DNA of 64,000 bases from Candidatus Heimdallarchaeum aukensis (lineage in GTDB: Archaea > Asgardarchaeota > Heimdallarchaeia > Heimdallarchaeales > Heimdallarchaeaceae). How positions within the stretch are numbered: position 1 is the stretch's first letter; the number at the start of each line of letters is the position of its first letter. The DNA is taken from contig CP084166.1 in the NCBI GenBank assembly GCA_021513695.1, positions 320,001 through 384,000 of the forward strand. The letters are read 5' to 3'. Positions 7,087 through 51,869 of this stretch are shown here, piece after piece. Below the pieces are notes generated by a model. That model was not told where the DNA came from and ran no database searches. It saw only the letters and a program-made list of their open reading frames with translations. The position numbers were made by a program, and so were the translations under genes.

Positions 7087-7097
7087 GAGGAAAAAAA

Positions 7098-37200: not shown

Positions 37201-37321
37201 TTCAGATTCAACAGATACAAAACAAACAGTTGAAGTTTCAAGCTGGTCTATATTTATTTCTTTGTCAAGCTTTCTGTTTGTTATCTACACTTTACGAAAA
37301 AGATTATTCTTCAAAAGATAA
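34214..37321 (+). CDS. giant surface protein with right-handed parallel beta-helix repeats and C-terminal TM anchor
   Basis: SD GGGGGT upstream; N-terminal TM/signal; >25 Asn/Ile-rich repeats (ISxNxIxNN, IENN, ITxN) as in NosD/pectate-lyase fold; Ig/FN3-like region near C-terminus; TM + LRKRLFFKR. Confidence 0.55.
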   Translation: MMKKNVKGFHQNNFRKKYMFQRIKRILIFNIFLLILLSQYLFVYSSSTSSQSNNFQEQEIQIERRIINNKNNLQGQKNFEYIINDVEEKIERLTQSLNSKTERVITKANQKLDNQKLFNPSLSIFEPEPSTFLSYTSHSPIAINGNDDFIAQAISEGWVGSGTESDPYIISGLNITPSDTEKGISVYNTTLFFNIENCVITGGTEGIHFNLVSNAKIINISITNSLENSIGLYTSSKILIDSCSVSGSNVGMNIQSSEEIEINSCKIFDTNDNGVQIAENSRYITGIDNVFRNVLFGFHVMHRCYNITITGNQFYEMIFDNAVLSDWESSWNFTISENIFYNNSLISIFDYSYNNIILNNTFYGGSLFIRGDNNKVFNNLFIANGEVFGQITICDGSYNEIEENIMEANIIIANLTNSVIENNIISSLEAFRHGLNIESSSYITVKNNTIYNITKGTGICISESFKIEMIENSIGFLGTEIDQREGINLYLSSNLSIIYNEIFNATRMGIASYKTNSTTIESNFFYNISLYGLHFPAPNYNIIIQNNTFETMLDRAIDIGGTNSIIQDNTIRHCYSSGISLPSLSFSKIINNNIIDIGGSAISSYWGCLNLEIANNFISNSSYGLGLSDSLDLIIQKNTITNILDVSIHISFTGDYPIDSFHSATNQIIINNNELSYSRVGICIGGRNIDSNILNLFIFGNTISNHADNGIQLHEFSGLFNIYDNFIDNCGWAGIELWGDENGIVENNSIYYCDNTARDTRAIQLDFSYNVQITENHIESNNIGIYIYGSRNSSITLNSFISNANDGIIIDENKDSITEIVVMHNNFINNNIGGKQASDFGSNNVFILNYWSDHTNTDANGDGIADEPYYLGGNTGNADNFPLVDLVTEQSPTHVMTIPSIIYPVSGITLSGVEEIKWKKAYDSMEHEVFYDLYYSKDDGNSWIMIANTIKGNSYNWDTTSVPDGDNYKLKVVADDNHGLTSVAISKTFRILNTQNSDSTDTKQTVEVSSWSIFISLSSFLFVIYTLRKRLFFKR

Positions 37322-37443
37322 TTTTTAATCTTTATCCTTTTCTTTTTTTATATTCTGGCGAGAAAGGAGCACCTAGCACAATACTCAAAATTATTTTTTC
37401 TATACAAATCTGAATATTTTTTAAGTGTATTATTTTTCTTGAA

Positions 37444-38199
37444 ATGTTTATGTCGAAACTTATTCTAGAAACTGTCAATTTAACTCTTAAAATTGAAGAT
37501 AAGATAATATTTCAAAACATTAATTTAAAGATTGAAAAAGGTACAATTCACGCTTTGATTGGAGTAAATGGCTGTGGTAAGTCTTCTATTGCTAGTGTTC
37601 TTATGGGGTTGAAAAAGCCATCAAGTGGAGAAATACTTCTTGAGGGAGAAAGTATAGTTGATCTTTCAATAACTGAACGAGCGCAAAAAGGGTTAACACT
37701 AGCTTGGCAAGAACCAGTAAGGTTTGAAGGTCTTTCAGTTAAAGATTACTTATCCATTTCAAGAAAGACGAAGAATGAAAAATCTATTAAAGATGCTCTT
37801 GAATCTGTTGGGCTTATATCAGAGAAATACCTTGAACGGTTCGTTGATGATACTTTGTCTGGAGGAGAAAGAAAGAGAGTAGAACTTGCATCTATATTAC
37901 TTATGAAACCGAAAGTTGCTATTCTAGATGAAATTGATAGTGGAGTAGATTTCATTGGTATAGACAAAGTACTTGACACAATTAGAAAAATAGCTCAAAA
38001 TGGAAGCGTGCTTTTAATTACTCATCAAGATGAGTTTTTGAAAATAGCTGATAAGGCTACTTTGATTTGTAATGGAAATATCCTTAGAACAGGTGAACCT
38101 CAAGAAATTAGTAAATTTTACAGATATGAATGTACATATTGTGTAGATGAGAATAATCCTGATTTAGCTTTGGAGGAACTCTTAAATGTCAATAGATAG
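37444..38199 (+). CDS. sufC: Fe-S cluster assembly ATPase SufC
   Basis: Walker A GVNGCGKSS, ABC signature LSGGERKR, Walker B ILDEIDSG, H-loop ITHQ; ~250 aa, SufC-like. Confidence 0.8.
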   Translation: MFMSKLILETVNLTLKIEDKIIFQNINLKIEKGTIHALIGVNGCGKSSIASVLMGLKKPSSGEILLEGESIVDLSITERAQKGLTLAWQEPVRFEGLSVKDYLSISRKTKNEKSIKDALESVGLISEKYLERFVDDTLSGGERKRVELASILLMKPKVAILDEIDSGVDFIGIDKVLDTIRKIAQNGSVLLITHQDEFLKIADKATLICNGNILRTGEPQEISKFYRYECTYCVDENNPDLALEELLNVNR

Positions 38200-39136
38200 A
38201 AAGAATGAATACGAAGCACTCCTTAAGCTATTAGAAAAAGGAGGAGGGAATGCTGAAGAAATCAAAAATAACATTGGAGCAAATATGATTCTTAATAAAG
38301 ATGAAGTTATTTCTGTCAATGAAACAGAGGGAATCAAGCTAAAAGCTACTAAAATACCTGATGGGGTTAAAGCTTCTATAATTATAAAAGAAGGATATAA
38401 AGAAACAAAACCTGTTCATCTTTGTTTTGGTATGTTACCTAAAGAAGGAAAACAAATAATTAAATCTGAAATTATAGCTGGAAAGAATTCTAAAGTTAAA
38501 ATTTTAAGTCATTGTATTTTTCCAAACGCTGTACATATTCAACACATCATGGAAGGAAAAATAATTTTGGAAGAGGGAGCAGAGTTAATTTATGAAGAAG
38601 AACATTATCATTCTGAAGAAGGATTAATAGAAGTTGTTCCTGTTCAAGAAGTTGTCGTAGAAAAAAATGCAAAATATTTCAATAATTTTAAAATGAAAAA
38701 CGGAAGAGCAGGGAAGATAAATATAGACTATCTAGTTACTCTGAAAGAAAAGGCAATTGCAGAACTTACAACAAAAATAGGCGCAAAATTCGATGATGAA
38801 ATAAAAATGAAAGAAAAAATAATATTAGAAGGAAAAGAATCTAGAGGATTAATACTTTCTCGAATTGTATTAAGAGATAATTCTACAAGTGAGTTTGTAG
38901 GTATAACTGTAGGAAAAGGTGCATATTCAAAAGCTCATGTTGATTGTAGTGAAATAGTAATGGATAATGCAAAAGCTTCTGCAATACCTGAAATACAAGC
39001 TTTTGATTCTACTGCCAAGCTAACACATGAGGCTGCAATTGGAAGAATTGATCAAAAACAATTATGCACTTTAATGGCAAAAGGATTAAGTGAGAAACAA
39101 GCAATAGAATATCTAGTAAATGGTTTACTAAATTAG
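38186..39136 (+). CDS. sufB: Fe-S cluster assembly scaffold SufB/SufD-family protein (short archaeal form)
   Basis: Follows sufC with overlap; 316 aa beta-helix-type SufBD sequence (repetitive E/K-rich strands). Confidence 0.6.
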   Translation: MSIDRKNEYEALLKLLEKGGGNAEEIKNNIGANMILNKDEVISVNETEGIKLKATKIPDGVKASIIIKEGYKETKPVHLCFGMLPKEGKQIIKSEIIAGKNSKVKILSHCIFPNAVHIQHIMEGKIILEEGAELIYEEEHYHSEEGLIEVVPVQEVVVEKNAKYFNNFKMKNGRAGKINIDYLVTLKEKAIAELTTKIGAKFDDEIKMKEKIILEGKESRGLILSRIVLRDNSTSEFVGITVGKGAYSKAHVDCSEIVMDNAKASAIPEIQAFDSTAKLTHEAAIGRIDQKQLCTLMAKGLSEKQAIEYLVNGLLN

Positions 39137-39270
39137 TAACTTATTATTTTAGATTTTTGAATATAATAAACTTAAAAACCATGATTCATAATTTAGCATA
39201 TCTTAAATGTTAATATTAAGTAACTCAAGATAAATTTTTAACTTCCATGGGTTCTTAATTTTGTAAAAAA

Positions 39271-41034
39271 ATGAAATGGCAATTTGACAATGATAACCTT
39301 TTGACTAAGTGGAGTAAAAATATCAATCCAAAGTTTCCTTTACCAGAGTATCCTCGTCCTAATTTCCAAAGAGAAAAATGGATAAACCTTAATGGATTAT
39401 GGGATTACGCTATAACAAAAAGAAATGACATCAGTACTTTCATAGATAAAGGTGAAATTCTTGTTCCTTTTCCAATAGAATCTGCTTTATCAGGAGTAAA
39501 ACGCACTTTAAATCCTTATGAAAATTTAATTTATGTAAGAGATTTTGAGATACCTTCCTCTTGGACTAATGGTAGAATAATTTTGCACTTTGGAGCTGTT
39601 GATTGGCAAGCAAGAGTATTTGTTAATTCGAATTATATTGGCGAGAATAAAGGTGGCTATATTCCTTTTAGTTTTGATGTAACAAAATTTGTTTGTATGA
39701 ATGATACTAACACTCTAGAGGTACATGTTTTTGATCCTACAAATAAGGGGAGACAAGAAAGAGGAAAACAAGTGTTAAAACCGTGGGCTGTATTCTATAC
39801 TGCTGTTTCAGGTATTTGGCAAACAGTATGGTTAGAATATGTGCCTGAAGTATATATAAAAAGCATGACTATAACCCCTAAAGTTGATTCTAATTCAGTA
39901 CTTATTACTAATTTCTGTACTAGTGCTAAGGTAACAGATTTTGAAATTCGTTATTCTATATTTTTCAAAGGAAAAAAAATTGAAGAAAGAACTAGCAAAA
40001 TTAATTCATCAGAAACTATTAAATTACCAAACATTCATCTGTGGTCTCCTAAGGAGCCAAATTTATATGATTTAGAAGTAGAATTAGTTAAGCGAAATGA
40101 AACTCTTGATAAAGTTAAGAGTTACTTTGGTGTAAGAAAAATCGAATATAAGAAAGATGAAAATGGACATTTAAGATTCTATCTTAATAATGAAAAAATA
40201 TTCATGTTCGGAGTTTTAGACCAAGGTTATTGGCCTGATGGTTTATATACAGCCCCAACAGATGAAGCTCTTTTATTTGACATTAAGAAAGCTAAAGAAC
40301 TAGGCTTTAATACTATAAGAAAGCACATCAAAGTTGAACCTCTCCGATGGTATTATCATTGTGATAGAGAAGGGATGTTAGTTTGGCAAGATTTTCCTAA
40401 TGGAGGTAGTTTATGGGCTGGGTTTCTAAGTATGTTTACTGGTAAAAAAATTAATTTTAAGTTTGGAAGGAAAAAAGAATCAATTAAATCTCAATTCTAT
40501 AAAGAATTAACTAATATTGTAAGAACTCTTTATAACTTTCCATCAATTGTCGTTTGGGTTCCATTTAATGAAGGTTGGGGGCAATTTGAAACACGAAAAG
40601 TGACAGATTATGTACGAACTTTAGATTTTACAAGATTAATAGATAGTGCTAGTGGATGGGTAGATAAAGGGAGTGGAGATATAGCAGATATTCACAAATA
40701 TTTAGGCCCTGGTATTCCAAAAAGAGACAAAAAAAGAGTATTAACTCTTGGTGAATTCGGAGGTCTAGGACTCGTTGTTGAAAATCATGTGTGGAAGAAT
40801 GTTAAACCATGGGCATATAAAATTATGAAAAATAAAGACGATTTGTTAAAAAAATATGAAGAAATTATTAATAAAACGTTAGAATTGACAAAAAAGGGTT
40901 TAAGTGCAGCAATTTATACCCAAATCACTGATGTAGAAAAAGAAGTTAATGGTTTACTTACTTATGACAGGTTACAAAAAGTTGAGACAGAAAAAATGAG
41001 AAAAATTAATGAAAAACTTTCCAATTTTTATTGA
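39271..41034 (+). CDS. glycoside hydrolase family 2 enzyme
   Basis: GH2 sugar-binding domain pattern (WNGLWDYAI ... HFGAVDWQARVFVNSNYIGENKGGYIPFSFDVT), TIM-barrel region with GFNTIRKH and catalytic-acid-like NEGWGQ. Confidence 0.65.
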   Translation: MKWQFDNDNLLTKWSKNINPKFPLPEYPRPNFQREKWINLNGLWDYAITKRNDISTFIDKGEILVPFPIESALSGVKRTLNPYENLIYVRDFEIPSSWTNGRIILHFGAVDWQARVFVNSNYIGENKGGYIPFSFDVTKFVCMNDTNTLEVHVFDPTNKGRQERGKQVLKPWAVFYTAVSGIWQTVWLEYVPEVYIKSMTITPKVDSNSVLITNFCTSAKVTDFEIRYSIFFKGKKIEERTSKINSSETIKLPNIHLWSPKEPNLYDLEVELVKRNETLDKVKSYFGVRKIEYKKDENGHLRFYLNNEKIFMFGVLDQGYWPDGLYTAPTDEALLFDIKKAKELGFNTIRKHIKVEPLRWYYHCDREGMLVWQDFPNGGSLWAGFLSMFTGKKINFKFGRKKESIKSQFYKELTNIVRTLYNFPSIVVWVPFNEGWGQFETRKVTDYVRTLDFTRLIDSASGWVDKGSGDIADIHKYLGPGIPKRDKKRVLTLGEFGGLGLVVENHVWKNVKPWAYKIMKNKDDLLKKYEEIINKTLELTKKGLSAAIYTQITDVEKEVNGLLTYDRLQKVETEKMRKINEKLSNFY

Positions 41035-41035
41035 T

Positions 41036-42316
41036 TCATTTGTTTTCTTCTTTTTTTTCATTTGCAAATAGTAAAGGAATAATGGCAGTTAAAACAAGTA
41101 TTCCTGCAACGATAAACATTAGTGGAGGAGGAATATAGCCTATTTGACCAAATTCATCAATAAAGGTTTTACCCGAAGTTTTTGCTATAGCACTTCCTAT
41201 AAAAGGTCCTATTCCCATTGCTGCAAGTACAGTGAATACAATATAATAGCCAGAAAATTGTCCTCTCTTATCTTCAGGATAGAGATCTCTTATCCAAGTT
41301 ACTGAAGAAATGTCCCACATTGCCATAGCAAACATCATTCCGACACCAGAAAGTCCCAGAAAAATTAACTTTTCTGATAATCCAAAGAAAATCAATGAAA
41401 TCGATTCTATAAAAACAGAAATTATTGCTATCTTCTTTCTTCCTATTTTGTCTACAATAAAACCGACAGGAATAGAAATGAGTATAGCAATTAAAATTGC
41501 TACAAATATTAAGAGAGACGATTCTTCTAAACCTAGTTCAAGATGTTTTTGCATGTAAATAATCAAGAATGGGAAAAAGACATTAAAAGCAATTCCCCAT
41601 AACATTGCAGCGCTTAAGGTGAGGAAAACATCTCTATTATTTCTTAATTCAGATATACTAAAAGTAGTTTTAATTGTTTCCCAATATTTTTTCTCTGGTT
41701 TTTTTATCTCTACTTCTGGTGCAATAATTGCTCCTATTATTCCTAATACACCCACAGAAGCTCCAATTATGTAAAAGAAATCATAATAACCTAAAGATTC
41801 TATAATAAAGCCTGAAGCCCCATAGACCACCAATGTAGCAAATAAAACAGTGAATTCCATTACTGCACTTATTCTTCCTCGATTTTTTAGTGTGGTTACA
41901 TCAGTAGCATAAGCTTTTAGTGCAGCATCATTTGACATGCTTCCAAAAAAAGTCATTATACAATCAAAAACAATTGCTAAACTAGCAGCTAAAATTACTG
42001 GACGAACAAGTCCTGCAAGAGGAAATATGGCAGTAGTTAAAGCCCAAAAGGGTAAACCAATAAGAAAGAAAATTTTTCTTTTACCAATTTTATCAGAAAG
42101 AGCCCCAAAAAAAATAGATGTAAAAGTTGCAGTAAGAGCACTAGCAGCAACCATTATTGAAATATATAATGGATCAGGAATGATAACATTATACAAAAAT
42201 ACATTGAAATATTGATTTTCAACTCCCCAAGCCAGTTCACCAGCGAAACTAAGTAAAGTTATAGCTATAGTTGTTTTAGCAGAAATTTTCATATCAGAAA
42301 AAAAATAAAACAACAA
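41036..42316 (-). CDS. major facilitator superfamily transporter
   Basis: 12 TM helices, MFS-type loop motifs (GALSDKIGKRK, DKIGRKK) in both halves. Confidence 0.7.
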   Translation of the reverse strand: MLFYFFSDMKISAKTTIAITLLSFAGELAWGVENQYFNVFLYNVIIPDPLYISIMVAASALTATFTSIFFGALSDKIGKRKIFFLIGLPFWALTTAIFPLAGLVRPVILAASLAIVFDCIMTFFGSMSNDAALKAYATDVTTLKNRGRISAVMEFTVLFATLVVYGASGFIIESLGYYDFFYIIGASVGVLGIIGAIIAPEVEIKKPEKKYWETIKTTFSISELRNNRDVFLTLSAAMLWGIAFNVFFPFLIIYMQKHLELGLEESSLLIFVAILIAILISIPVGFIVDKIGRKKIAIISVFIESISLIFFGLSEKLIFLGLSGVGMMFAMAMWDISSVTWIRDLYPEDKRGQFSGYYIVFTVLAAMGIGPFIGSAIAKTSGKTFIDEFGQIGYIPPPLMFIVAGILVLTAIIPLLFANEKKEENK

Positions 42317-42342
42317 TTAAATTTTGTCACAAAAAAAGAGAT

Positions 42343-44343
42343 TTAGATTTTTTCATTTATCCAAATTTGCATCTCTGTTTTTCCTCTGTTTTCCCACAAA
42401 AAGTAAGGTGTCGCAATTATTTTTTCTCCAGATTGGTTTCTTGTTTCAATTATTTTTATATTACCAAAGTTTGGAAATAGAAAATCTTTAACTTCTATCT
42501 GTGAAGTATCTATTGTTTCAAAAGGAATCTTGGAATTAGGATTGTCGATTTTTTCAAAACAATAAACTAATGGACCATAACTCAAAGCTATTTTTCTTCT
42601 ATTTTCTTTTATTTTCTTATGTGAATAAAGTTTGGTTACATTCATTTGAAATTCTAAGTCTATTTCTGTTTTGTTAGAAAAGTTATCTTCAAGGGTAACA
42701 TATTCTGAAAGAAGAGGGTTGTATCCTGAAGCGGTAGTAATAGTTTCACTATTAGTTTGGTGATTAAATTCTTTGTTTTGACCATTAATACTAATCTTCA
42801 TTTTTTTTGTCCAAGAAGGAAAGCGAAAATGTAATTTAGAAAGTTTATAATTTGATTTTTTAAAATTGATAAACAACTTTACCTTTCCTTCCCAAGGAAA
42901 ATAAGAAACAAGAGAAAGATTGATTTCTTGGCCAATTTTTGAGCTGTTACTTATGTATTGATGTATCCATAATTCTGATTCTTTCATAGAGTAAATATAA
43001 TCTCCAACTTTAGCAATTGTTCTTGAATAGTTGGAAGGGCAACAAGCAGTTCGATACCAGTTTTGTCTTTCATAATTGCCATTTGAAATCATTGGATTGT
43101 AATAAAAATACTTTGTTCCATCGATTGAGGATGAAACTAAAATTGCATTGTATAATTGCCATTCAATCAAATCAGAATAACATGCTTTTCCAGTTAATTT
43201 TAACAACTCATTAGACCAGAAAACACTTCCAATGGCAGCACAAGTTTCACAATAGGCATATTTTTGAGGAAGTTCATAGGCTTTACCAAAACCTTCAAGC
43301 ATAGGTAGAGAACCTATTCCTCCTGTTGCATACATATATTTTGTAACCATTTCTTTCCAGATTCTCTCAAGTTGTTGTAGGTAAATTTTATTTTCTAATT
43401 CTTGTTGTAGTAGAGCAGCAGCTGTCATAAAATAAGTAAATCGCACACTATGACCTACAGGATGTTTCATTTTAAAAAAAGGTTTGTTATGTTGCATATA
43501 TTTACCTGTGAGAGCACTATAATAAAATCTAAATTTAAGAAAAGGAATATCATCAATTTTTAAGTCACTCATAACTTTTTTTTCATATTCCTTATTATGA
43601 GTTAATTTTTCTATCTGCTTGTTAACTTCTTTTGTTCGCTCTTCTACAGATAAAAATTCCTTTATCATTTGAATAAAGAATAGTTTTTTTCTTCCTCTGT
43701 TTTCAATAAATTTTTTAGCTAAATTTAGGTATCTCCTATCATTATTAACTCTAAATAACTTTATTAAAGCAATTTCAATTTCTTGATGCCCAGGAACTTC
43801 TATTTTTTTTGAATTAAAAAATTGGATATAGATCGCTTCAGCTAGTTTTTCAGCAATCTGGAGAAAAGTTTTTTCTCTTGTAGTTTGATAATGTTCAACT
43901 GCAGCTTCAATTAAATGTCCTGCAGTATATAGTTCGTGTTCAATTAAGAGATTCTTCCACTTTGTTTCAGGAAAGAAGAATTGATTGTATGTAAAAATAT
44001 ACCCATCTTCATCTTGAGCTTCTTGAAGGAGTTTAATATATAGATCTATTAATTCTTTTAATTTCGTGTTTTTTCTTGCTGAAGAGATCCTAATTGCAGC
44101 TTCTGACCACTTATGGGCGTCTGAGTCCCAGTAAGAAAGACCTTTTCTGTATCCCTCTTTGTTCTTTGCAATAATTCTGAAATTGTCAATACAACCACTT
44201 TTTTCTAACATTTTCCATTGGTGAAAAATAGCTTTTTCTGCATTGACATCCTGTTTATTTTTCCAAAAACCGTTGTTAATTTTAATTTGTGAATATGGAA
44301 TAGATATGAAAAAAATGTTAGGAGAATTAGTATTTTCGCTCAT
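42343..44343 (-). CDS. glycoside hydrolase family 127 (beta-L-arabinofuranosidase-like, DUF1680)
   Basis: Zinc-site pattern of GH127: E-x-C (YCETCAAIG) and downstream Cys-Cys (RTACCPSNY). ORF track start 44403 overlaps mtd; internal ATG (MSENTNS) at 44343 removes overlap. Confidence 0.6.
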   Translation of the reverse strand: MSENTNSPNIFFISIPYSQIKINNGFWKNKQDVNAEKAIFHQWKMLEKSGCIDNFRIIAKNKEGYRKGLSYWDSDAHKWSEAAIRISSARKNTKLKELIDLYIKLLQEAQDEDGYIFTYNQFFFPETKWKNLLIEHELYTAGHLIEAAVEHYQTTREKTFLQIAEKLAEAIYIQFFNSKKIEVPGHQEIEIALIKLFRVNNDRRYLNLAKKFIENRGRKKLFFIQMIKEFLSVEERTKEVNKQIEKLTHNKEYEKKVMSDLKIDDIPFLKFRFYYSALTGKYMQHNKPFFKMKHPVGHSVRFTYFMTAAALLQQELENKIYLQQLERIWKEMVTKYMYATGGIGSLPMLEGFGKAYELPQKYAYCETCAAIGSVFWSNELLKLTGKACYSDLIEWQLYNAILVSSSIDGTKYFYYNPMISNGNYERQNWYRTACCPSNYSRTIAKVGDYIYSMKESELWIHQYISNSSKIGQEINLSLVSYFPWEGKVKLFINFKKSNYKLSKLHFRFPSWTKKMKISINGQNKEFNHQTNSETITTASGYNPLLSEYVTLEDNFSNKTEIDLEFQMNVTKLYSHKKIKENRRKIALSYGPLVYCFEKIDNPNSKIPFETIDTSQIEVKDFLFPNFGNIKIIETRNQSGEKIIATPYFLWENRGKTEMQIWINEKI

Positions 44344-44356
44344 TTTCTCCCCGATG

Positions 44357-45193
44357 TTATTTTGCTTCTTCAAAGAAGTTTTCTTTGTAAAGTCTTTTTC
44401 CATCTGCTTTATTATGTGGTTGCCTTACAAGCATATTTGTACTTTTTTCTAGTTCTCTTATCTCATCAGCAAGTAAACCAGCTTGTCTAACAATTTCATG
44501 TGCTGCTGCAAGGTATATTAATGATTTAGATTTATCTTTCTCTACATACAAACCTTTGATATCAAGTTTAGCTACTTTTGTTAACATTTCTAGAGCAGCG
44601 ACTGCTTTAGCTTTGGAGTAGTCGTTTTTGAAAGGATATGATTGAACAACTGTCATGCTTGATAGATTTCTTTTGGGTAACATCAGTTCTTTTCCTTCTT
44701 TTATTTGTTCAATTACATTATCTATTTCTTTGGTTATTAGTTCAAAAACACCAGCTGCACTAAGAACATTGATTACATAACCATTGAAAATTCCCATTTC
44801 TGTAGGATCTAGAAAATCTTTTTTTGCACCAATCATTGGATCAAAAGGAGCGATTAAATAACCTACACCTTCATTTCTCCATGATTCTCTTAGTTCTTTA
44901 TCAGCTTCGTCAGAGACAACAATGAGTGGATATTTTCCTTTTAATTCATTAACAAGCTTTTTGGGACCATCCAAATTAGCATTGGGAGAAACAACGACAA
45001 TTAAATCAGATTCTACATATTCTAGAAGTGAAAGGATTCGTTCTGCATCAGATGGAGAAAGCTTTGTAGAAGAGGATAAGACAGTTCCTTGAATGTCATC
45101 CCTACTTGCTCGTTCATCTAACATAATATCAACTAAAGTTGTTAGAGTAATATTTCCTATTTTTAAGAATGTGACCTTTACCATTTTTATCAC
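44357..45193 (-). CDS. mtd: F420-dependent methylenetetrahydromethanopterin dehydrogenase
   Basis: Full-length (~278 aa) collinear similarity to Mtd: LVDIMLDERASRDD, NEGVGYLIAPFDPMIGAKKDFLDPTEMGIFNGYVINVLSAAGVF, AKAVAALEML, LADEIRELEKSTNMLVRQPHNKADGK. Confidence 0.8.
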   Translation of the reverse strand: MIKMVKVTFLKIGNITLTTLVDIMLDERASRDDIQGTVLSSSTKLSPSDAERILSLLEYVESDLIVVVSPNANLDGPKKLVNELKGKYPLIVVSDEADKELRESWRNEGVGYLIAPFDPMIGAKKDFLDPTEMGIFNGYVINVLSAAGVFELITKEIDNVIEQIKEGKELMLPKRNLSSMTVVQSYPFKNDYSKAKAVAALEMLTKVAKLDIKGLYVEKDKSKSLIYLAAAHEIVRQAGLLADEIRELEKSTNMLVRQPHNKADGKRLYKENFFEEAK

Positions 45194-45290
45194 AAAGTGT
45201 CCTAAGCATTCTTATTAAAAAATCATTTTGTCAAATTTAAATAAATGAATAATTTTATAATGGTTAATATTTTTCAATCAATGTAGAAAG

Positions 45291-46040
45291 ATGAGAGATA
45301 AAGTACTAGTAGCAACTACTTCAGTCTTAATTATAGCATTTTCAATTTCATTGTTAAACATCTATGTCTTACCTGACATACGTTTTCAACTTAATGTTAA
45401 CAGAGAATACACTAATGACTCTCAATATGAAATTCTTCTAAATATGGAAAATATAGCTATTTCTTCTTCTTATTTTGAAGGTATAAACTTGAGCCACATA
45501 GTTTATGATATACCTGAACATTCTATTATGAATATTACTTACATGCTTGAACAAGTAAAAAAACATGAGTCTGCAGCTTATGATACTTTGAAGGATGTAT
45601 ATTTTGATACAAATGAAGTTATTCCTCAACCAAAACAAATCAAAATGTCATATAATGGTTCAATATCGTTTGTAACAAGTAATTCTACAAATTATATCAA
45701 AAAAATACTCTCTTTTTATAAAGAAGGAGGAAATAACGCAACTTATTTTGTTGTTCTAAACTCAAGTTCCTACATAACAAAATGTAATATTTCTGAAGTT
45801 GGATTAAGTCAGTTTGATATTTATGAATCAATTTTGCTACTAAACAATTTATTTGATGATGTGAATACAAAACCATTCTATGTTATTTATCAACATGTAT
45901 ATTATGAGGAAACAAGAGGTTTTCTACTTTCATATTCCACATCATTTACAAGAATGATTTTTCTGAATGTCTTTGGCGACTTACTTTATTTTATTACTAA
46001 CGAAGGATATTGGATAAAACCTCTAGATTTACTAATTTGA
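45291..46040 (+). CDS. hypothetical N-terminally anchored protein
   Basis: N-terminal TM helix, Asn/Tyr-rich extracytoplasmic domain with N-glycosylation sequons; no family recognised. Confidence 0.3.
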   Translation: MRDKVLVATTSVLIIAFSISLLNIYVLPDIRFQLNVNREYTNDSQYEILLNMENIAISSSYFEGINLSHIVYDIPEHSIMNITYMLEQVKKHESAAYDTLKDVYFDTNEVIPQPKQIKMSYNGSISFVTSNSTNYIKKILSFYKEGGNNATYFVVLNSSSYITKCNISEVGLSQFDIYESILLLNNLFDDVNTKPFYVIYQHVYYEETRGFLLSYSTSFTRMIFLNVFGDLLYFITNEGYWIKPLDLLI

Positions 46041-46098
46041 GTGTAAAATCAAGAATTTTTTGCAAAAAAAATATATACATTGATTACTAGTACATTTT

Positions 46099-46602
46099 AT
46101 GTCTCAAGAAATTAAACCAATGGGATTCAAAGTTCAACAAAAGATATTAGCTCTAGTTGCAACATATAATATCTATGATTTGGCAACAGATCAGCAAATA
46201 TTTCAAGCAAAAAGAAAAATGTTTTCATGGACACCAACAATTATAATAAAAGATATGGCAGAAAATGAAGTAGCAAAAATCGTTTCTAACTTCTTCTTCC
46301 AAAATAACTGGAAAATATACGCTCCAGACGGAGCATTGATAGGTGAAGTTAAGTTTCCTCTTATTCGTTTTTGTGGTATCAAATTTGATGTAATGCTGGC
46401 TGGAAACACATATACTGCTTCTGATATTTTTGGTTATTCATTCTCTGCTGTTGATGTTAATGGAAACTTAGGTTTTAAATTGGATAGAAAAGTATTTGCG
46501 ATAAGAGACACTTACAAAGTAGAAACCTATCCTCCTCTAGAACCTGTTTTTGCTTTAGCTGCTGCTTTAGCTATAGATTCAAAATACTTCCAAGGAAAAT
46601 AA
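46099..46602 (+). CDS. LURP-one-related (LOR/DUF567, Tubby C-terminal-like fold) protein
   Basis: 167 aa; pattern KILALVATYNIYDLATDQQIFQAKRKMFSWTPTIIIKD resembles LOR family beta-barrel proteins; tentative. Confidence 0.35.
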   Translation: MSQEIKPMGFKVQQKILALVATYNIYDLATDQQIFQAKRKMFSWTPTIIIKDMAENEVAKIVSNFFFQNNWKIYAPDGALIGEVKFPLIRFCGIKFDVMLAGNTYTASDIFGYSFSAVDVNGNLGFKLDRKVFAIRDTYKVETYPPLEPVFALAAALAIDSKYFQGK

Positions 46603-46634
46603 ACGTTTTTTTCTTTTTTTTCTCTTTTTTTGGT
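46603..46634 (+). terminator. oligo-T terminator (three T7-T8 runs)
   Basis: T-runs at 46606-46612, 46615-46622, 46627-46633 directly after stop codon. Confidence 0.35.
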
Positions 46635-46676
46635 ATATTCAATAAAAGTTAAAATATTAGATTTGAATCTCTTTTT

Positions 46677-47822
46677 GTGAGAGAAAAAATAGATGAGATT
46701 ATAGAGTTCTTAAAAAGTGAACTTGCAGAGGATTGCTCTTATTATTCTGGAAAAGTTTTTGGCAGTATGAGTAGTTATCCTGATGATGATGTAGTGAAAG
46801 TTTTCACTGAATTTATAGAAAAAAATGCTGGTGATGCAAATATCTTTGCTGGTACAGCTAAGATTGAAAACAAAGTAATTAACCTCTTAGGAACTTTTTT
46901 TAACAATCCTACAGCTGGTGGAAATTGTGTTAGTGGAGGAAGTGAAGCAAATGTAGTAGGGCTGTGGGCAGCAAGAAATTTTTTCAAAGAAAGGAAAAAC
47001 TTAGCTTTCCTCAATGGAGAATATGAAATAATTGCTCCTGAAACTAGACATACTTCAATTGCAAAAGCAGCTGATATATTGAATTTGAAATTAGTAGAAG
47101 TTCCTGTAAACAAAGATTTTGAAGTAGAAGCAAAAATTGTGGAAGAGAAAATATCTGAAAAAACTATTGCAATTGTGGGTATTGCAGGAAACACTGTTTA
47201 TGGAGCAATAGATAACATCGAAGATCTGTCTCTTATTGCATTAAATAATAATTGTTGGTTACATGTAGATGCAGCTTTTGGAGGGTTTGCAATACCTTTC
47301 TTAAAAAATCCACCAAGATTCGATTTTATTTTTGAAGGAGTAAAATCATTGGTAGCTGACCCTCATAAAAATTTAGGTAGCCCAATTCCAAATGGTTGTA
47401 TACTATTCAGAGACTTAGACCATTCAAAACATATTATTCATCACTTACCTTATTTTTCGGGGAAAAAAACTGAAAATCGAACAATTATAGGAACAAAATC
47501 AGGAGCTGCGATAATAGCTACTTATTATTTATTAAATTTTAAAGGGATTGATTGGTTAAAAAAACGAATGAAAAGTGCTTTTGAAAACAAAGATTACCTA
47601 AAACAAAGACTAGAAAAGTTAGGTTTTGAAATTTTTGGAAAAGCTCAACTGAACGTTCTTGCAGCTAAACCCCCTGATAGTATAAGAAAAAGAAGAAATG
47701 AGCTATTCAAAAAAGGTTGGAGAATAGGCAAATATGGAGATCTTTGGAGATTTGTTGTAATGCCTACTATAAGTAGAGAAAATATAAACGAATTAATATC
47801 TGTTTTAGAAGAAAATTGTTAG
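46677..47822 (+). CDS. mfnA: PLP-dependent L-tyrosine/L-aspartate decarboxylase MfnA
   Basis: GTG start; N-terminus collinear with archaeal MfnA (KVFGSMSS..., VSGGSEANVVGLWAARN), PLP-lysine motif DPHKNLGSPIPNGCILFRD. Confidence 0.75.
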   Translation: MREKIDEIIEFLKSELAEDCSYYSGKVFGSMSSYPDDDVVKVFTEFIEKNAGDANIFAGTAKIENKVINLLGTFFNNPTAGGNCVSGGSEANVVGLWAARNFFKERKNLAFLNGEYEIIAPETRHTSIAKAADILNLKLVEVPVNKDFEVEAKIVEEKISEKTIAIVGIAGNTVYGAIDNIEDLSLIALNNNCWLHVDAAFGGFAIPFLKNPPRFDFIFEGVKSLVADPHKNLGSPIPNGCILFRDLDHSKHIIHHLPYFSGKKTENRTIIGTKSGAAIIATYYLLNFKGIDWLKKRMKSAFENKDYLKQRLEKLGFEIFGKAQLNVLAAKPPDSIRKRRNELFKKGWRIGKYGDLWRFVVMPTISRENINELISVLEENC

Positions 47823-47891
47823 GCACTGAGATTAGGGTTTACAAATGTTATTCATTTGTAATAATTTTTTCCTCTTTCACATCATTTATAA

Positions 47892-49877
47892 ATGAAAAGT
47901 GACAAAGATATAATGGGGTGTTTCTGGATGAATAATAAGAAACTATCAGTATTATATATTATAACATTTTTAGTTGTTTCCATGGCTTTTGGAAACAATT
48001 ACGGAATAAATGTTCAATCTGAAACCAGTTTGAATTCTTATCAAGCACTTCAAGCAGGAGATACCCTGTTATATGAAGTTTATAACTGGTTTGAAGATGA
48101 ATACAATCATTTACTCTATTTAGAACAAGAAACTCCAGATGTTTTCTCAGATAAATCATATGACAATTTCTTCTTTGAACAGATTGAGCTTCACTCATTT
48201 GTAGTTACTGGAGCTGCTGATCCTACATACCTTACAGCAAATGAAACAATGTCATCATATCCAAAGACTAATTATAATTATCATGAATATTGGCACTACG
48301 ATTATAGTCAAAACAAATGGGTAAGTGATTGGGTAGATGAATATAGTTTTGAAGATCCTCCAAAGAGTGATGTATTTTTCGATATCAGTTTTGATGTATA
48401 TCAGGATACCTTGAACCTAGATTTAGGTTTTTGGTTTTATGAAGCAGTATATGTTGAAAATTACAATCAAACCTACATAATCAATGGTGTTCCATTTGAA
48501 ATAAATATTACTCACTACAGTGTTTATCATGAATATACTTCTTCTTGGGAAGACGGATTTTATGATCTTCCTCTGTATGTAGAGCAAAATAATACCAATC
48601 AAATTGATTATTACATTGACACTGATACAGGATTTTTGATCGAATATGAAGAGTTTAACACTTTTGAAGAAAAAAGATGGGTAGATGATTATAGCAGTGA
48701 ACTACAAACCCATGTAATATTAAATGATACATTGTACAATGAAAATTACTTTAATTGGAAATTGGTAGGAGCAAATTGTCAATATGCACCATTAGCAGAA
48801 GTAGATTTGCCTTATATAGTGAACTATTATGATGTTTCGTTTTTAACCATAGAAAATGATACAGACTATGTTGTATTACCTTTAGAGCTTTATACATCCT
48901 CCAATAATTTAACAGCAGAAATATCTCTTGTTAATTGGGACATGGATGGACCTAATGTTACATTGTATGACAGAGTAGAAAATCTAACAAATGGATATTG
49001 GGAATATTGGATACCAGTTACAGAGTTTGAATATGTTGGTCCATACTATTACTATGATGTTTTAGTAACTCTATATGATGGATACAATGTTTCACATAAT
49101 TCAACATGGCATATAGGACTACAAGACAATAGAGTAATCATACCTGATTGGCCATCTTGGTATGAAGGACCAGACTACATTGAAGTAGGAGAATGGGAGT
49201 TCTGGGATCAACCCTACGATGTTTATTCTGATACTTATTGGTTTGTTGATATTTACAGATATACAGATGACCCAATGTATCCAATGGAATTCATTGATCA
49301 CTGGGAAGGATATCAGAATGGAACATTTTGGCTACATCATCGTGAAGAACCTGAAGGAGAATATCAATATGAAATTGTATTCTGGGACCAAAGCGGTGCT
49401 TATATCAATATGACTGTTACAGTTAAAGTAGTTAGTGGTTCGACTTCTCCAGAAGATACCGATCCTCCTGTTATTACTGGTGAAGGGCCAGACATTTACA
49501 TCAAAGAAGGAGAAGATAAAACTCTAACTTATAAGATTACAGATGAAAACCCTGACCATGTTATGGTTAAGAGGAACGGTACTGTTATTATAGATGAAGA
49601 CATGACAAGTTCTCCATACTACATTGATATAGACCTCTCAACTTTAGGTGAAGGAACTTACATATTTAGTATTGATGCTTGGGATATTTATGACAATCAT
49701 AATATCTGGGACATTACTGTCTATGTTTCTTCCAGTTCTTCTGACACAAATGATACTTCACCCACAGATGATACTGGAACAAATACTTTCGATTTAGATG
49801 CTCCTAATGGATTAATTGTTGGTATAAGTCTATTTTCTGTTAGTGCTTTAGTAGTTTTACTAAAGAAAAAACGCTAA
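47892..49877 (+). CDS. acidic, Trp/Tyr/Asp/Glu-rich surface protein with C-terminal TM anchor
   Basis: Signal peptide, pI clearly acidic, repeated YD/WxD segments, C-terminal TM + LKKKR. Confidence 0.45.
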   Translation: MKSDKDIMGCFWMNNKKLSVLYIITFLVVSMAFGNNYGINVQSETSLNSYQALQAGDTLLYEVYNWFEDEYNHLLYLEQETPDVFSDKSYDNFFFEQIELHSFVVTGAADPTYLTANETMSSYPKTNYNYHEYWHYDYSQNKWVSDWVDEYSFEDPPKSDVFFDISFDVYQDTLNLDLGFWFYEAVYVENYNQTYIINGVPFEINITHYSVYHEYTSSWEDGFYDLPLYVEQNNTNQIDYYIDTDTGFLIEYEEFNTFEEKRWVDDYSSELQTHVILNDTLYNENYFNWKLVGANCQYAPLAEVDLPYIVNYYDVSFLTIENDTDYVVLPLELYTSSNNLTAEISLVNWDMDGPNVTLYDRVENLTNGYWEYWIPVTEFEYVGPYYYYDVLVTLYDGYNVSHNSTWHIGLQDNRVIIPDWPSWYEGPDYIEVGEWEFWDQPYDVYSDTYWFVDIYRYTDDPMYPMEFIDHWEGYQNGTFWLHHREEPEGEYQYEIVFWDQSGAYINMTVTVKVVSGSTSPEDTDPPVITGEGPDIYIKEGEDKTLTYKITDENPDHVMVKRNGTVIIDEDMTSSPYYIDIDLSTLGEGTYIFSIDAWDIYDNHNIWDITVYVSSSSSDTNDTSPTDDTGTNTFDLDAPNGLIVGISLFSVSALVVLLKKKR

Positions 49878-49889
49878 TTTATTCCTTTT

Positions 49890-50954
49890 TTATTTTTTTA
49901 TTACCTTTTTTAATTGATCAAGAGTTAAAACTCCTTCACTAGTGATATAACCCTTTATTAGCTCTGCTGGAGTGATGTCAAAAGCATAATTTAATACTGG
50001 AGATTTTTCATTAGAAATAAGAATTCTTTTCTCCATTGATGTTACAAACTTTACTTCTTCTTCGTCTCTTTCTTCAATAACTATATCACTAGCTTTTCTT
50101 CCTGATAAGTCAATTGTGGACCACGGTAAAGCTACAAAGAAATCTATTCCAAAATATTTTGCTGAAATAGCTAAAGATAATGTACCTATTTTATTAGCAA
50201 TTGTCCCATCTTGTAAACATCTATCAGCTCCAACGATTATCTTATCAATTTCTCCTTTTGACATAAGAAAAGCTGCAGAATTATCAGTAATAATTGAATG
50301 TTCAATTCCTGCTTCATAAAGTTCCCAAGCAGTTATTCTAGCTCCTTGAAGTCTTGGACGAGTTTCATCTACAATCACTCTTACTTTTTTATTTTTGGAA
50401 TGAGCAACATAAATAGGTGCTAGAGCAGTGCCATAATCCACTGTGGCAGGAGCTCCTGCATTACAATGAGTTAAGATTGTATCTCCATTCTTAATTATTT
50501 TTTCTCCTTGTATTCCAATATTTTTACATTCATCTATTACTTTTTCTCTTAAAGAATGAGCTTTGTTCAAAACATTTTCTACTGATAAATTTGTATTTAT
50601 TGCTTCTTCTAGAATTATTCGTGCAAAATTTTCTAAATCTACTGCTGTAGGACGGGAAGAAATTAAAGTGCTGTAACTTGCTTTAAGAAATTCTATCTGT
50701 TTTTCTTGTCGCTTGAATTTACTTAATGCTTGAATTGCAGCAAATACCATACCATAAGCAGCAGTAACACCTATTGCTGGAGCTCCTCTGACTACCATGT
50801 TTTTAATAGCTTCGCTAACATCTTTCACACTATGGTATTCATTGAATTTTACATCCCAAGGTAATAACCTTTGATCTAGTAAGACCAATGAATTATTTTG
50901 ACTATTCCAAAAAACACTTGTCACATTTTTCAACTTTCTACTCTTTATCTGCAT
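49890..50954 (-). CDS. mtnA: eIF-2B alpha/beta/delta-family isomerase (MtnA-like methylthioribose-1-phosphate isomerase / aIF-2BI)
   Basis: LVLLDQRLLPWDVKF...AIKNMVVRGAPAIGVTAAYGMV and THCNAGAPATVDYGTALAPIYVA match MtnA/aIF-2B-like family; ORF track start 50993 lies in A-rich spacer, MQIKS start at 50954 more plausible. Confidence 0.7.
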   Translation of the reverse strand: MQIKSRKLKNVTSVFWNSQNNSLVLLDQRLLPWDVKFNEYHSVKDVSEAIKNMVVRGAPAIGVTAAYGMVFAAIQALSKFKRQEKQIEFLKASYSTLISSRPTAVDLENFARIILEEAINTNLSVENVLNKAHSLREKVIDECKNIGIQGEKIIKNGDTILTHCNAGAPATVDYGTALAPIYVAHSKNKKVRVIVDETRPRLQGARITAWELYEAGIEHSIITDNSAAFLMSKGEIDKIIVGADRCLQDGTIANKIGTLSLAISAKYFGIDFFVALPWSTIDLSGRKASDIVIEERDEEEVKFVTSMEKRILISNEKSPVLNYAFDITPAELIKGYITSEGVLTLDQLKKVIKK

Positions 50955-51005
50955 ACTTAGAAAAAAGAAAGAAAGCAATAAAAATCTATGCAAAAAAAAT
51001 CGGAA

Positions 51006-51869
51006 TTATTTTTCTCTTTCTTTAATATATTCTCTTAAAGCTTGAACTACGGGTAAAGAGTGAGTGTTTTTATTGTTTCCTAAATTTTTATAGGTTGAAT
51101 TCTTTATTAATTTGGCTATTTCTTTAGTTATTTTCGCATCATGCATTTTATCTGCTTCTGCAGCTATTAATAGAACTTCACTTTTTACATTAGCATAAGT
51201 ATCCCACCATTTAGGAAGAGCTAAAGGTTTGCCAAATTTTTTCCATTTTCTACCTTGAGCTTCATTTAAGACTCTGATATACTTTGCTGCTTGCTCTGGT
51301 GATTCAGATTTTGCTCTTTTAATCCAAATTTTAAGAAGAGGTTTTAAAACATTAAAACTCCAGAAAGGGACAATTGGCACAATATATCTCGTTAAAGGAG
51401 GTAAATCAAATCTTGCAGGAGGAGCAATCAAGACAGAAAATAATGGGTTATATTTGTTATTAGCTAATCCATGTGCAATTACAGTAGCACCAAAACAAGA
51501 GCCAAAAAGGATAGTTTTGTTTTGATCAAGTTCTTTAAGATTAATGATCTCTTTTAGATCATCACTCATTCTATCCATTCCTGTCTGAGACTTCTTTGGA
51601 ATGATACTAGACCCTTTTTCTCTGCTTTCTATGTATAAAACATTAAAGTCTTTACTGAGTTCCATTAAAACTTCATCCCAACCTAAGACTACAGAACCCC
51701 ATCCAGCAAAAAGAACTATATTGTAAGTTTTTTCTGTTTCATTGTCAACTTTAGTAGATAGAACTCTTAATTGGGCTCCGTCTGACATTGTTAGGTATTC
51801 TTCTGTTGCGAATTTCTCATATTCTGCTTGTTGTAGCTCCAGAAAATTTTTCACACTTTCAGCTGCCAT
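51006..51869 (-). CDS. alpha/beta-hydrolase-like protein with Cys in nucleophile elbow (paralog A)
   Basis: VLFAGWGS oxyanion-like strand, elbow ILFGSCFGATVIAHG, conserved KPLLKIWIK and DKMH; paralogous to 62349..63278 and 63445..64000; 12 nt upstream of mtnA-like gene. Confidence 0.5.
   Translation of the reverse strand: MAAESVKNFLELQQAEYEKFATEEYLTMSDGAQLRVLSTKVDNETEKTYNIVLFAGWGSVVLGWDEVLMELSKDFNVLYIESREKGSSIIPKKSQTGMDRMSDDLKEIINLKELDQNKTILFGSCFGATVIAHGLANNKYNPLFSVLIAPPARFDLPPLTRYIVPIVPFWSFNVLKPLLKIWIKRAKSESPEQAAKYIRVLNEAQGRKWKKFGKPLALPKWWDTYANVKSEVLLIAAEADKMHDAKITKEIAKLIKNSTYKNLGNNKNTHSLPVVQALREYIKEREK

Follow-up and report, generated by a model that had tools for sequence, protein, structure and literature searches.

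The neighbourhood of mtd and a GH127 glycoside hydrolase gene in Candidatus Heimdallarchaeum is an ordinary one: it is a recent, genus-specific juxtaposition and forms no conserved functional unit. The genes concerned lie in a stretch of 64,000 nucleotides from the Ca. Heimdallarchaeum aukensis genome (hereafter the window), and all four are standard members of their families, already annotated in public Heimdallarchaeum genomes:

39271 to 41034, plus strand: GH2 family glycoside hydrolase (Glyco_hydro_2_N, Glyco_hydro_2 and Glyco_hydro_2_C domains)
41036 to 42292, minus strand: MFS transporter, 418 aa from a conserved ATG (PF07690, 142 bits)
42343 to 44343, minus strand: GH127 family glycoside hydrolase, 666 aa (PF07944, PF20736 and PF20737)
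44357 to 45184, minus strand: mtd, F420-dependent methylene-H4MPT dehydrogenase, 275 aa (profile and structure-sequence matches)

A preliminary description of this DNA had named the first gene of the set mtd, and profile and structure-sequence searches agree with that call. In a Pfam profile search the protein scores 285.2 bits with PF01993 (cutoff 25) over profile positions 1 to 272 of 274, and it aligns full length with the Methanopyrus kandleri Mtd structure, PDB 1QV9 (198 bits; residues 2 to 273 against 4 to 281). A near-identical protein (P0001) is named F420-dependent Mtd by NCBI, and the score with the NCBIfam equivalog NF002162 is 295.6 bits, for a cutoff of 297. Mtd proteins of Heimdallarchaeia form a clade with no more than 48% identity to any other Mtd; 46 columns are nonetheless invariant in a full-length alignment with five non-Asgard Mtds, drawn from methanogens, Archaeoglobi, Bathyarchaeota and Methanomethylicia. 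The gene starts at ATG 45184, not at GTG 45193, and its product is 96% identical to the counterpart in Ca. H. endolithica PR6 (CP084167.1), with a dN/dS of 0.03. We predict that it interconverts methylene- and methenyl-H4MPT in an F420-linked reaction, and mtd is best explained as a vertically inherited, strongly constrained H4MPT-pathway gene of the Heimdallarchaeaceae.

Across at least 26 Heimdallarchaeia genomes mtd lies at a conserved locus, and strong purifying selection maintains the gene. Outside the genus, more than 20 genomes have mtd (58 to 66% Mtd identity) beside the same upstream block, which is divergent from mtd and comprises a 661-aa protein, MtnA, a hydrolase, a LOR-domain protein and a 249-aa protein; MtnA scores 368.6 with TIGR00512, against a cutoff of 279. 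The parts of this block referred to here are:

45291 to 46602, plus strand: 249-aa protein with no family match, and LOR-domain protein (order and orientation kept in more than 20 Heimdallarchaeia loci)
49890 to 51869, minus strand: MtnA (methylthioribose-1-phosphate isomerase) and alpha/beta hydrolase (family-conserved block)

On the downstream side the anchor is an aspartyl-tRNA-synthetase-like gene, which lies 0.1 to 3.8 kb from mtd in 19 loci and is separated from it there by zero to three variable small genes. None of the more than 20 other Heimdallarchaeia loci has GH127 beside mtd, and no glycosidase lies near mtd in them. Among the approximately 30 Heimdallarchaeia mtd loci examined, GH127 adjoins mtd only in the window, the contigs of a JGI strain, PR6 and L004, a relative with 74% identity. 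It is in tandem with mtd in the first three, and the 13-nt spacing and Shine-Dalgarno-like motif are kept in two species; in L004, GH127 is on the opposite strand and convergent, with the sugar set lying between mtd and the synthetase gene. Elsewhere in the Heimdallarchaeaceae, GH127 homologues occur in a context of ParB_N, GH127 and short-chain dehydrogenase genes, unlinked to mtd; in GCA_029856355.1, for example, contig 22 carries mtd and contig 12 carries GH127.

The window is collinear with PR6 from 55085 to 40974, although GH2 is deleted in PR6, leaving a remnant of about 180 nt. Because GH127 adjacency is confined to genus-level relatives, with GH127 inverted in L004 and GH2 lost from PR6, the set appears to have arrived recently in a variable 3′ flank of mtd. 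In comparisons of near-identical strains, dS values are about 0 to 0.02 from the 661-aa protein gene through mtd, rise to 0.09 to 0.34 across GH127, MFS, GH2 and SufBD, and return to 0.02 at SufC. Around the sugar set we found no tRNA and no Rfam family that would mark a mobile element, only short low-complexity repeats. We also considered allelic replacement of GH127, whose product is 75% identical to that of PR6 while its neighbours are 96% identical, and rejected it: dS is similar for the two genes (0.86 for GH127 and 0.65 for mtd), and the gap in identity arises from faster evolution of the GH127 protein (dN of 0.133 against 0.020).

In these comparisons, order and orientation of mtd, GH127 and MFS are not kept in diverged relatives, so the apparent operon of the preliminary description is not a conserved one; co-regulation of mtd with carbohydrate use, which that description also raised, is not upheld for an adjacency limited to one genus-level clade, in which GH127 can be inverted and GH2 deleted.

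The same description had recognised GH127 from an E-x-C and C-C motif, and a profile search finds all three domains of the family, with 272 bits for PF07944 (catalytic), 48 for PF20736 (middle) and 69 for PF20737 (C-terminal). Alignments reach 330 bits with 4QJY and 246 bits with HypBA1 (3WKW), and both motifs have counterparts in 4QJY (AYCETCAAIG with AYAETCASIA for E-x-C, and TACCPSN with CACCPPN for C-C), as has an upstream Glu (LEGF with GESF); by analogy with HypBA1, these residues would be the Cys nucleophile, the zinc ligands and the acid/base Glu. Among NCBIfam equivalogs the highest score, 346 bits for aceric acid hydrolase, is far below that model's cutoff of 950, and we therefore assign no substrate class (beta-L-arabinofuranoside or aceric acid). 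Heimdallarchaeia proteins rank at the top of the group to which GH127 belongs, interleaved with proteins of Spirochaetota and Chloroflexota at 42 to 50% identity. Relative to PR6, GH127 has a dN/dS of 0.16.

The start of GH127 is at ATG 44343, and not at the overlapping ATG 44403: codon 44403 is ACG in PR6, which keeps ATG 44343 together with the CGGGGA ahead of it, and in PR6 and the JGI strain alike the spacer and ATG 44343 are retained but ATG 44403 is not. This start leaves 13 nt between mtd and GH127 and no overlap, so that of the earlier statement that mtd runs into the start of GH127 the same-strand adjacency stands but the overlap does not. The gene that follows was correctly called an MFS transporter; it has weaker Sugar_tr and MFS_2 matches in addition to PF07690 (MFS_1), and it is 96% identical to its PR6 counterpart (dN/dS of 0.05). 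Its start is most likely the conserved ATG 42292, which puts it 50 nt after the GH127 stop rather than the 26 nt given before. The GH2 gene does converge on it from the other side, as had been described, with a single base separating the two stop codons; it has the expected GH2 domains and falls below all NCBIfam equivalog cutoffs.

How far mtd and GH127 may be transcribed together depends on the signals between and around them. A scan for sigma-70 promoters and hairpin terminators returned fewer sites than shuffled sequence, and its model does not apply to archaea; we judged the signals instead from oligo-T runs and a comparative alignment of intergenic regions. The candidate elements are:

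45211 to 45218, minus strand: TATA-like element TTAATAAG, putative mtd promoter, about 30 nt ahead of the mtd start codon
44344 to 44356, minus strand: 13-nt spacer between mtd and GH127, with Shine-Dalgarno-like GGGGAG at 44347 to 44352
44309 to 44315, minus strand: T7 run, possible leaky oligo-T terminator, in GH127 codons 10 to 12, 41 nt past the mtd stop
42331 to 42337, minus strand: T7 run, likely archaeal oligo-T terminator, 5 nt past the GH127 stop
42314 to 42330, minus strand: GTGACAAAATTTAATTG, conserved, putative promoter for MFS alone, about 25 to 35 nt before ATG 42292

In the comparative alignment, TTAATAAAGGG or ATATAAAGGG stands at an equal distance from mtd in a majority of about 20 upstream regions from Heimdallarchaeia, and the TATA-like motif is followed by TGATTAC immediately before the ATG; the element would thus be a promoter of mtd common across the family. 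As regards an independent promoter or terminator between mtd and GH127, which the preliminary description would have counted against its operon, the signals are mixed: the spacer itself has no T run, but the T7 run beyond it is conserved as T8 in PR6; with runs of seven or more at 0.93 per kb per strand, one would fall within 48 nt by chance in about 4% of cases. Runs of at least six within 21 nt of a stop are found for about 45% of window genes, where background density would predict about 4%. The 50-nt gap between GH127 and MFS holds a T7, the conserved promoter-like element and a T8, and the window, the JGI strain and PR6 share GTGACAAAATTTAATTG without a difference, against a protein identity of only 75% for the adjacent GH127.

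Read-through from mtd into GH127 is plausible in this genome, although it is not a conserved feature. The window has 13 junctions at which genes on one strand are separated by no more than 15 nt, and ten of these connect components of a single system, which favours co-transcription across the 13-nt gap; from the same-strand placement and the GGGGAG motif some transcripts from the mtd promoter probably continue into GH127.

Apart from mtd, none of fwd, ftr, mch, mer and cdh is present among 53 of the 55 open reading frames of at least 110 aa in the window (the other two are antisense and lie inside larger genes), and we found no fae, hps or phi in the window. Likewise, no other H4MPT gene lies within 10 kb of mtd in the approximately 30 Heimdallarchaeia loci. 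Three genes do have some relation to C1 metabolism or stand beside one that has:

46677 to 47822, plus strand: MfnA-type PLP-dependent decarboxylase (tyrosine decarboxylase, methanofuran-biosynthesis family; TIGR03812 equivalog, 350.8 against 299.4)
55228 to 56031, minus strand: PanB, which uses a methylene-C1 carrier, about 10 kb from mtd
56862 to 57647: phosphopantothenate synthetase

The MfnA equivalog is 1.5 kb from mtd, a position found only in the window, the JGI strain (L002) and PR6. Since the phosphopantothenate synthetase is adjacent, the MfnA-type enzyme and PanB probably serve CoA synthesis here. The preliminary statement that the 64 kb hold no further gene of H4MPT metabolism, methanogenesis or the Wood-Ljungdahl pathway therefore holds for fwd, ftr, mch, mer and cdh but has to make room for the MfnA equivalog and PanB.

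We also looked for Mch beyond the window. A search with the M. kandleri sequence, verified against PDB 1QLM, gave matches to class-I methanogens throughout the 120 listed. A profile search of 50%-identity representatives gave 1806 matches; none of the 20 most AT-rich of 150 listed representatives is named as Mch of Heimdallarchaeaceae, which is not evidence of absence. Those looked up belong to Odinarchaeia, Lokiarchaeota, Hodarchaeales, Bathyarchaeia, Thermoprotei and Thermoplasmata, with one labelled Halanaerobiales, and none of four Mch contigs looked up matched the mtd-bearing Heimdall assemblies. A Hodarchaeales Mch, the one Asgard Mch available for comparison, is 23 to 34% identical to the other Mch sequences, too low for shared peptide words with a Heimdallarchaeum protein to be expected. 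No mch was found in the neighbourhood of a gammaproteobacterial Mtd (L037).

The predicted lifestyle of Ca. Heimdallarchaeum is that of an H2-releasing anaerobic organotroph (PMC8813620), in line with the preliminary remark that the host is no classical methanogen. In the Heimdallarchaeaceae the Wood-Ljungdahl pathway has been reported as absent or progressively lost (PMC10307638, PMC12222021, bioRxiv 10.1101/385732): it is reportedly absent in AB_125-type Heimdallarchaeia (bioRxiv 10.1101/385732), and a progressive loss toward Heimdallarchaeaceae has been described, in which the published figure shows partial and not total loss (PMC12222021). Accounts of the timing disagree: the H4MPT branch was lost either ahead of the Heimdallarchaeia ancestor or only step by step inside the group (PMC10307638 against PMC12222021). 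Retention of mtd bears on this dispute: a gene kept in a conserved locus under strong purifying selection argues that at least part of the H4MPT/F420-dependent C1 module persists in Heimdallarchaeaceae.

We think it likely that the juxtaposition of mtd and the sugar genes is a by-product of recent rearrangement, with no selected metabolic coupling, in organisms whose H4MPT genes are probably scattered. On this proposal, mtd, which occupies a family-wide conserved locus, would have its own TATA-type promoter and a 3′ flank that behaves as a variable slot. A sugar-utilisation set of GH127, MFS and GH2 would have arrived in that flank on the branch that gave rise to the genus Heimdallarchaeum. 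In this genome GH127 would thereby have been placed on the mtd strand, 13 nt behind that gene and preceded by the ribosome-binding-like GGGGAG, while MFS apparently has its own promoter behind an oligo-T terminator. Scattered C1 genes, one of two possibilities raised in the preliminary description, would fit the absence of H4MPT genes near mtd best of the two.

That mtd is an orphan, the rest of the methyl branch being gone and the Mtd homologue acting on a different substrate or with a different cofactor, we regard as unlikely. It would suit the reported absence or progressive loss of the Wood-Ljungdahl pathway, the divergence of the Heimdall clade from every other Mtd, an NF002162 score 1.4 bits under the cutoff, and the lack of a Heimdallarchaeaceae Mch among the 20 representatives looked up; those look-ups, however, covered 20 of 150 and do not speak to absence, and the published loss is partial. 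A dN/dS of 0.03, the columns shared invariantly with bona fide Mtds and the full-length alignment to a solved enzyme also argue against repurposing.

Sugar metabolism and H4MPT could in principle be linked, by formaldehyde from a reverse ribulose-monophosphate (RuMP) route. Under adaptive co-expression, mtd would be deliberately co-transcribed with the sugar genes, and formaldehyde released by sugar catabolism, or by pentose formation through reverse RuMP, would be bound to H4MPT and oxidised by Mtd to yield reduced F420. The tight gap and Shine-Dalgarno-like motif kept in two species would be expected of a selected operon too and count against the by-product reading. Co-expression would also suit the tendency of short same-strand gaps in the window to be operon junctions, and RuMP components have been reported in Asgard genomes (bioRxiv 10.1101/385732; PMC10307638). 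We nevertheless consider such co-expression quite improbable: the arrangement does not extend beyond one genus-level clade, which also has the L004 inversion and the PR6 deletion, more than 20 relatives retain mtd with no nearby glycosidase, mtd retains its family-wide promoter motif, no fae, hps or phi was found in the window, and mtd and GH127 differ strongly in constraint. More doubtful still is that the genus evolved the mtd-GH127 bicistron as an adaptive innovation, coupling an H4MPT/F420 formaldehyde- or C1-oxidation module, kept despite loss of the Wood-Ljungdahl pathway, to GH127/GH2 sugar use; were it true, reverse-RuMP formaldehyde would be oxidised whenever sugars released by these enzymes are consumed. 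An assembly or binning artefact joining a methanogen-like to a heterotroph contig, suggested by nothing but the unexpected pairing of functions, is refuted, since the junction is seen again in three JGI contigs of independent origin and in the circular PR6 genome; GC is uniform (about 29 to 31%) across a region whose Mtd clade is specific to Heimdallarchaeia and whose flanks are conserved.

Compared with known systems, the Heimdallarchaeum Mtd resembles that of M. kandleri (1QV9, 3IQE) in full-length homology, its single PF01993 domain and the family-invariant residues; unlike it, the protein belongs to a non-methanogenic Asgard heterotroph, no C1 genes were found next to its gene, and its activity and cofactor use are predicted. 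In the Asgard H4MPT Wood-Ljungdahl methyl branch of Loki-, Thor- and Hodarchaeales, mtd is one of five steps and Mch homologues exist (in Lokiarchaeota, Odinarchaeia and Hodarchaeales), whereas the branch is reported absent or incomplete in Heimdallarchaeaceae and mtd stands alone here within 64 kb. GH127 shares its three domains, Glu, E-x-C and C-C motifs with the beta-L-arabinofuranosidases of Geobacillus (4QJY) and Bifidobacterium longum (HypBA1), and differs from the aceric acid hydrolase model by the shortfall in score given above. Sugar-utilisation sets elsewhere do not include mtd, and the Heimdallarchaeum set is unlike them in that no regulator or binding protein was identified in it and its orientation and content differ among close relatives; it nevertheless resembles the small glycosidase-plus-transporter sets of bacteria and archaea, with GH127, an MFS permease and GH2 co-located in three lineages (the window with the JGI strain, PR6 in part, and L004).

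The four genes of the neighborhood are real, with corrected coordinates, as follows.

44357-45184, minus strand: mtd (PF01993 profile, alignment with 1QV9)
42343-44343, minus strand: three-domain GH127 glycosidase, the next gene after mtd (profile search and motif alignment)
41036-42292, minus strand: MFS permease, following GH127 and most likely starting at the conserved ATG 42292
39271-41034, plus strand: GH2 glycosidase, convergent on the MFS gene, with the two stop codons on opposite strands one base apart (41034-41036)

The preliminary description's assignment of mtd was borne out by a Pfam profile search, in which Mtd matches PF01993 at 285 bits with near-complete profile coverage, and by alignment along its full length with the Methanopyrus kandleri enzyme (1QV9; 198 bits). 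With the NCBIfam equivalog model, Mtd reaches 295.6 bits, 1.4 bits below the cutoff of 297, and it keeps 46 invariant columns in an alignment with Mtds of Methanosarcinales, Methanocaldococcus, Archaeoglobi, Bathyarchaeota, and Methanomethylicia. The GH127 call also held: the protein has three domains, and AYCETC and TACCPSN correspond in alignment to the catalytic zinc/cysteine motifs of GH127 enzymes with solved structures. Profile searches confirmed the MFS gene and the convergent GH2 gene. The nearest downstream T-runs of the GH2/MFS pair, T8 (16 nt) and T6 (39 nt), each lie inside the other gene's 3′ end.

Mapping the window proteins onto 38 mtd-containing loci showed conservation of one mtd flank across more than 20 Heimdallarchaeia genomes whose Mtd is 58-66% identical. 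This block (window 45185-51869; loci L006-L036) is transcribed divergently from mtd and codes for a large surface-type protein, MtnA, an alpha/beta hydrolase, a LOR-domain protein, and a 249-aa protein without a family match, in that order; no functional link between it and mtd is evident. Common to these genomes are a TATA-like element (TTAATAAAGGG or ATATAAAGGG) that precedes the mtd start codon by ~30 nt and TGATTAC directly ahead of that codon; in the window the TATA-like element reads TTAATAAG and is equally far from the ATG. The downstream flank of 19 loci has an aspartyl-tRNA-synthetase-like gene 0.1-3.8 kb from mtd, with zero to three variable small genes (e.g., methyltransferase, LOR-like proteins) in between, and none of the >20 genomes has a glycosidase beside mtd. 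Against the sister species Ca. Heimdallarchaeum endolithica PR6, the dN/dS of mtd (0.03) is the lowest among nine genes compared. We conclude that mtd has long occupied this conserved locus and is under constraint. In one MAG labeled Candidatus Thorarchaeota (L015; JBHLQZ010000072.1), mtd is of the Heimdallarchaeia type (63% identity) and the entire Heimdall synteny block accompanies it; this MAG is probably mislabeled or mis-binned. Strong F420-type Mtd homologues (PF01993, 351 bits; 38-39% identical to window Mtd) are also present in two Gammaproteobacteria MAGs (L037, 9983-10849; L038, 5548-6351), in L037 adjoining an AMP-binding enzyme; the usual bacterial enzymes are the NAD(P)-dependent MtdA or MtdB.

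The glycosidase set has a much narrower distribution. The closest proteins carry the name Candidatus Heimdallarchaeaceae, and among the 38 loci GH127 adjoins mtd only in the window, in JGI contigs of a near-identical strain, in PR6, and in one further relative (L004, GCA_054001415.1; Mtd 74% identical). A scan of species-representative genomes found the PR6 mtd (circular chromosome, CP084167.1) at 96% amino acid identity, and the two genomes are collinear from window 55085 to 40974; the PR6 GH2 gene is deleted, leaving a ~180-nt remnant of its 5′ part (14208-14384 of the PR6 locus versus window 39340-39521, 72% identical). The L004 GH127 is inverted and converges on mtd, with an additional zinc-ribbon gene coming next; there, mtd and the synthetase gene enclose the complete set of GH127, MFS, and GH2. 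In other Heimdallarchaeaceae the homologues of GH127 (45-50% identity) occupy a different conserved setting (ParB_N, GH127, short-chain dehydrogenase), and one Heimdallarchaeaceae assembly has mtd and GH127 on separate contigs. The set is thus a recent tenant of the variable mtd 3′ flank, and the two do not form a conserved functional unit.

Divergence also differs across the junction. Over window 36000-45200, dS against the JGI strain (L001-L003) is ~0-0.02 from a 661-aa protein through mtd, 0.09-0.34 over GH127, MFS, GH2, and SufBD, and back at 0.02 for SufC; the step suggests that the sugar set lies within a strain-variable segment, which is probably recombining. Against PR6, dN/dS is 0.05 for MFS and 0.16 for GH127; as mtd and GH127 have similar dS, the higher GH127 value simply reflects faster protein evolution. 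A serine recombinase (resolvase) gene (28354-29103, minus strand) lies ~13 kb from the sugar set, with no repeats or tRNA linking the two.

The preliminary description had mtd ending within or at the start region of GH127 in an apparent operon, with MFS 26 nt further on. The ATG 44403 that would give a 47-nt overlap is ACG in PR6, and ATG 44343 and the preceding CGGGGA are conserved, which separates the genes by 13 nt; the spacer carries a Shine-Dalgarno-like GGGGAG and no T-run. The MFS start lies 50 nt past the GH127 stop; the sequence in between has a T7 run 5 nt beyond that stop, the block GTGACAAAATTTAATTG, which three genomes share without a difference, and T8. T-runs of at least 6 occur within 21 nt of the stop in ~45% of window genes, versus ~4% expected from background density, and in none of the obvious-operon genes (hydrogenase, LarECB, SufCD), from which oligo-T termination seems to be active here. 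GH127 is followed by a typical putative oligo-T terminator, and a separate promoter for MFS is probable. Of the 13 same-strand junctions of ≤15 nt in the window, 10 connect components of a single system, which makes read-through of mtd transcripts into GH127 plausible; a T7 run (T8 in PR6) lies 41 nt past the mtd stop, within the first GH127 codons. A sugar-linked C1 operon is not supported, given the adjacency in few relatives, the inverted GH127 of L004, and the deleted GH2 of PR6, and we consider it very unlikely that mtd is co-expressed with the sugar genes in Heimdallarchaeum to oxidize sugar-derived formaldehyde. An assembly artifact is ruled out, as the same junctions recur in JGI contigs from three related samples (mtd 99.6% identical).

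The alternative of scattered H4MPT C1 genes agrees with the data: none of the loci examined has a further H4MPT-pathway gene less than 10 kb from mtd. Profile searches found no fwd, ftr, mch, mer, or cdh in the 64-kb window, as described previously, with the nuance of two further genes.

46677-47822, plus strand: MfnA-type tyrosine/aspartate decarboxylase, 1.5 kb from mtd, between the LOR gene and the 661-aa protein (NCBIfam equivalog TIGR03812 passed, 350.8 versus 299.4)
55228-56031: PanB, ~10 kb from mtd, adjoining phosphopantothenate synthetase (56862-57647)

MfnA-type enzymes have a known dual role, and PanB uses a methylene-C1 carrier. Given that dual role, these three genes look like coenzyme A rather than methanofuran biosynthesis, with the decarboxylase, found at this position only in the genus Heimdallarchaeum, probably supplying beta-alanine. 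Mch was found in Lokiarchaeota, Odinarchaeia, and Hodarchaeales; in the small number of representatives checked, no Mch could be assigned to Heimdallarchaeaceae. The Hodarchaeales Mch (P0468) is unusually divergent, 23-34% identical to other archaeal Mch and without several conserved motifs (e.g., ISGPGR in place of GSGPAR). Wood-Ljungdahl pathway loss has been placed before the Heimdallarchaeia ancestor (PMC10307638); another study reports the complete pathway from some Hodarchaeales, with progressive loss in the direction of Heimdallarchaeaceae and Kariarchaeaceae (PMC12222021), and an earlier one reports its absence from AB_125-type genomes (bioRxiv 10.1101/385732). Partial pathway loss would accommodate an mtd that is kept under constraint. 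Public genomes already carry annotations for these components, which makes the mtd-sugar neighborhood of low interest overall.

A tight LarE/LarC/LarB-like cluster (29213-32078, plus strand; PP-loop ATPase, nickel-insertion protein, AIR-carboxylase-like protein) is followed by a 518-aa ORF without a Pfam match, and no LarA-type gene was recognized. The prediction of a heterotroph and not a classical methanogen agrees with the published description of Heimdallarchaeum (PMC8813620), in which an anaerobic organotroph releases its electrons as H2 by means of one membrane-bound sulfhydrogenase and two cytosolic ones.

5165-9720, plus strand: cytosolic NiFe sulfhydrogenase, four subunits, with a HycI-type maturation protease (best NCBIfam match HydA, 503 bits, below the equivalog cutoff)

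Among known systems, the window Mtd is an end-to-end homologue of M. kandleri Mtd, and this sulfhydrogenase, which matches the SHY complexes described for Ca. Heimdallarchaeum, is one of them.
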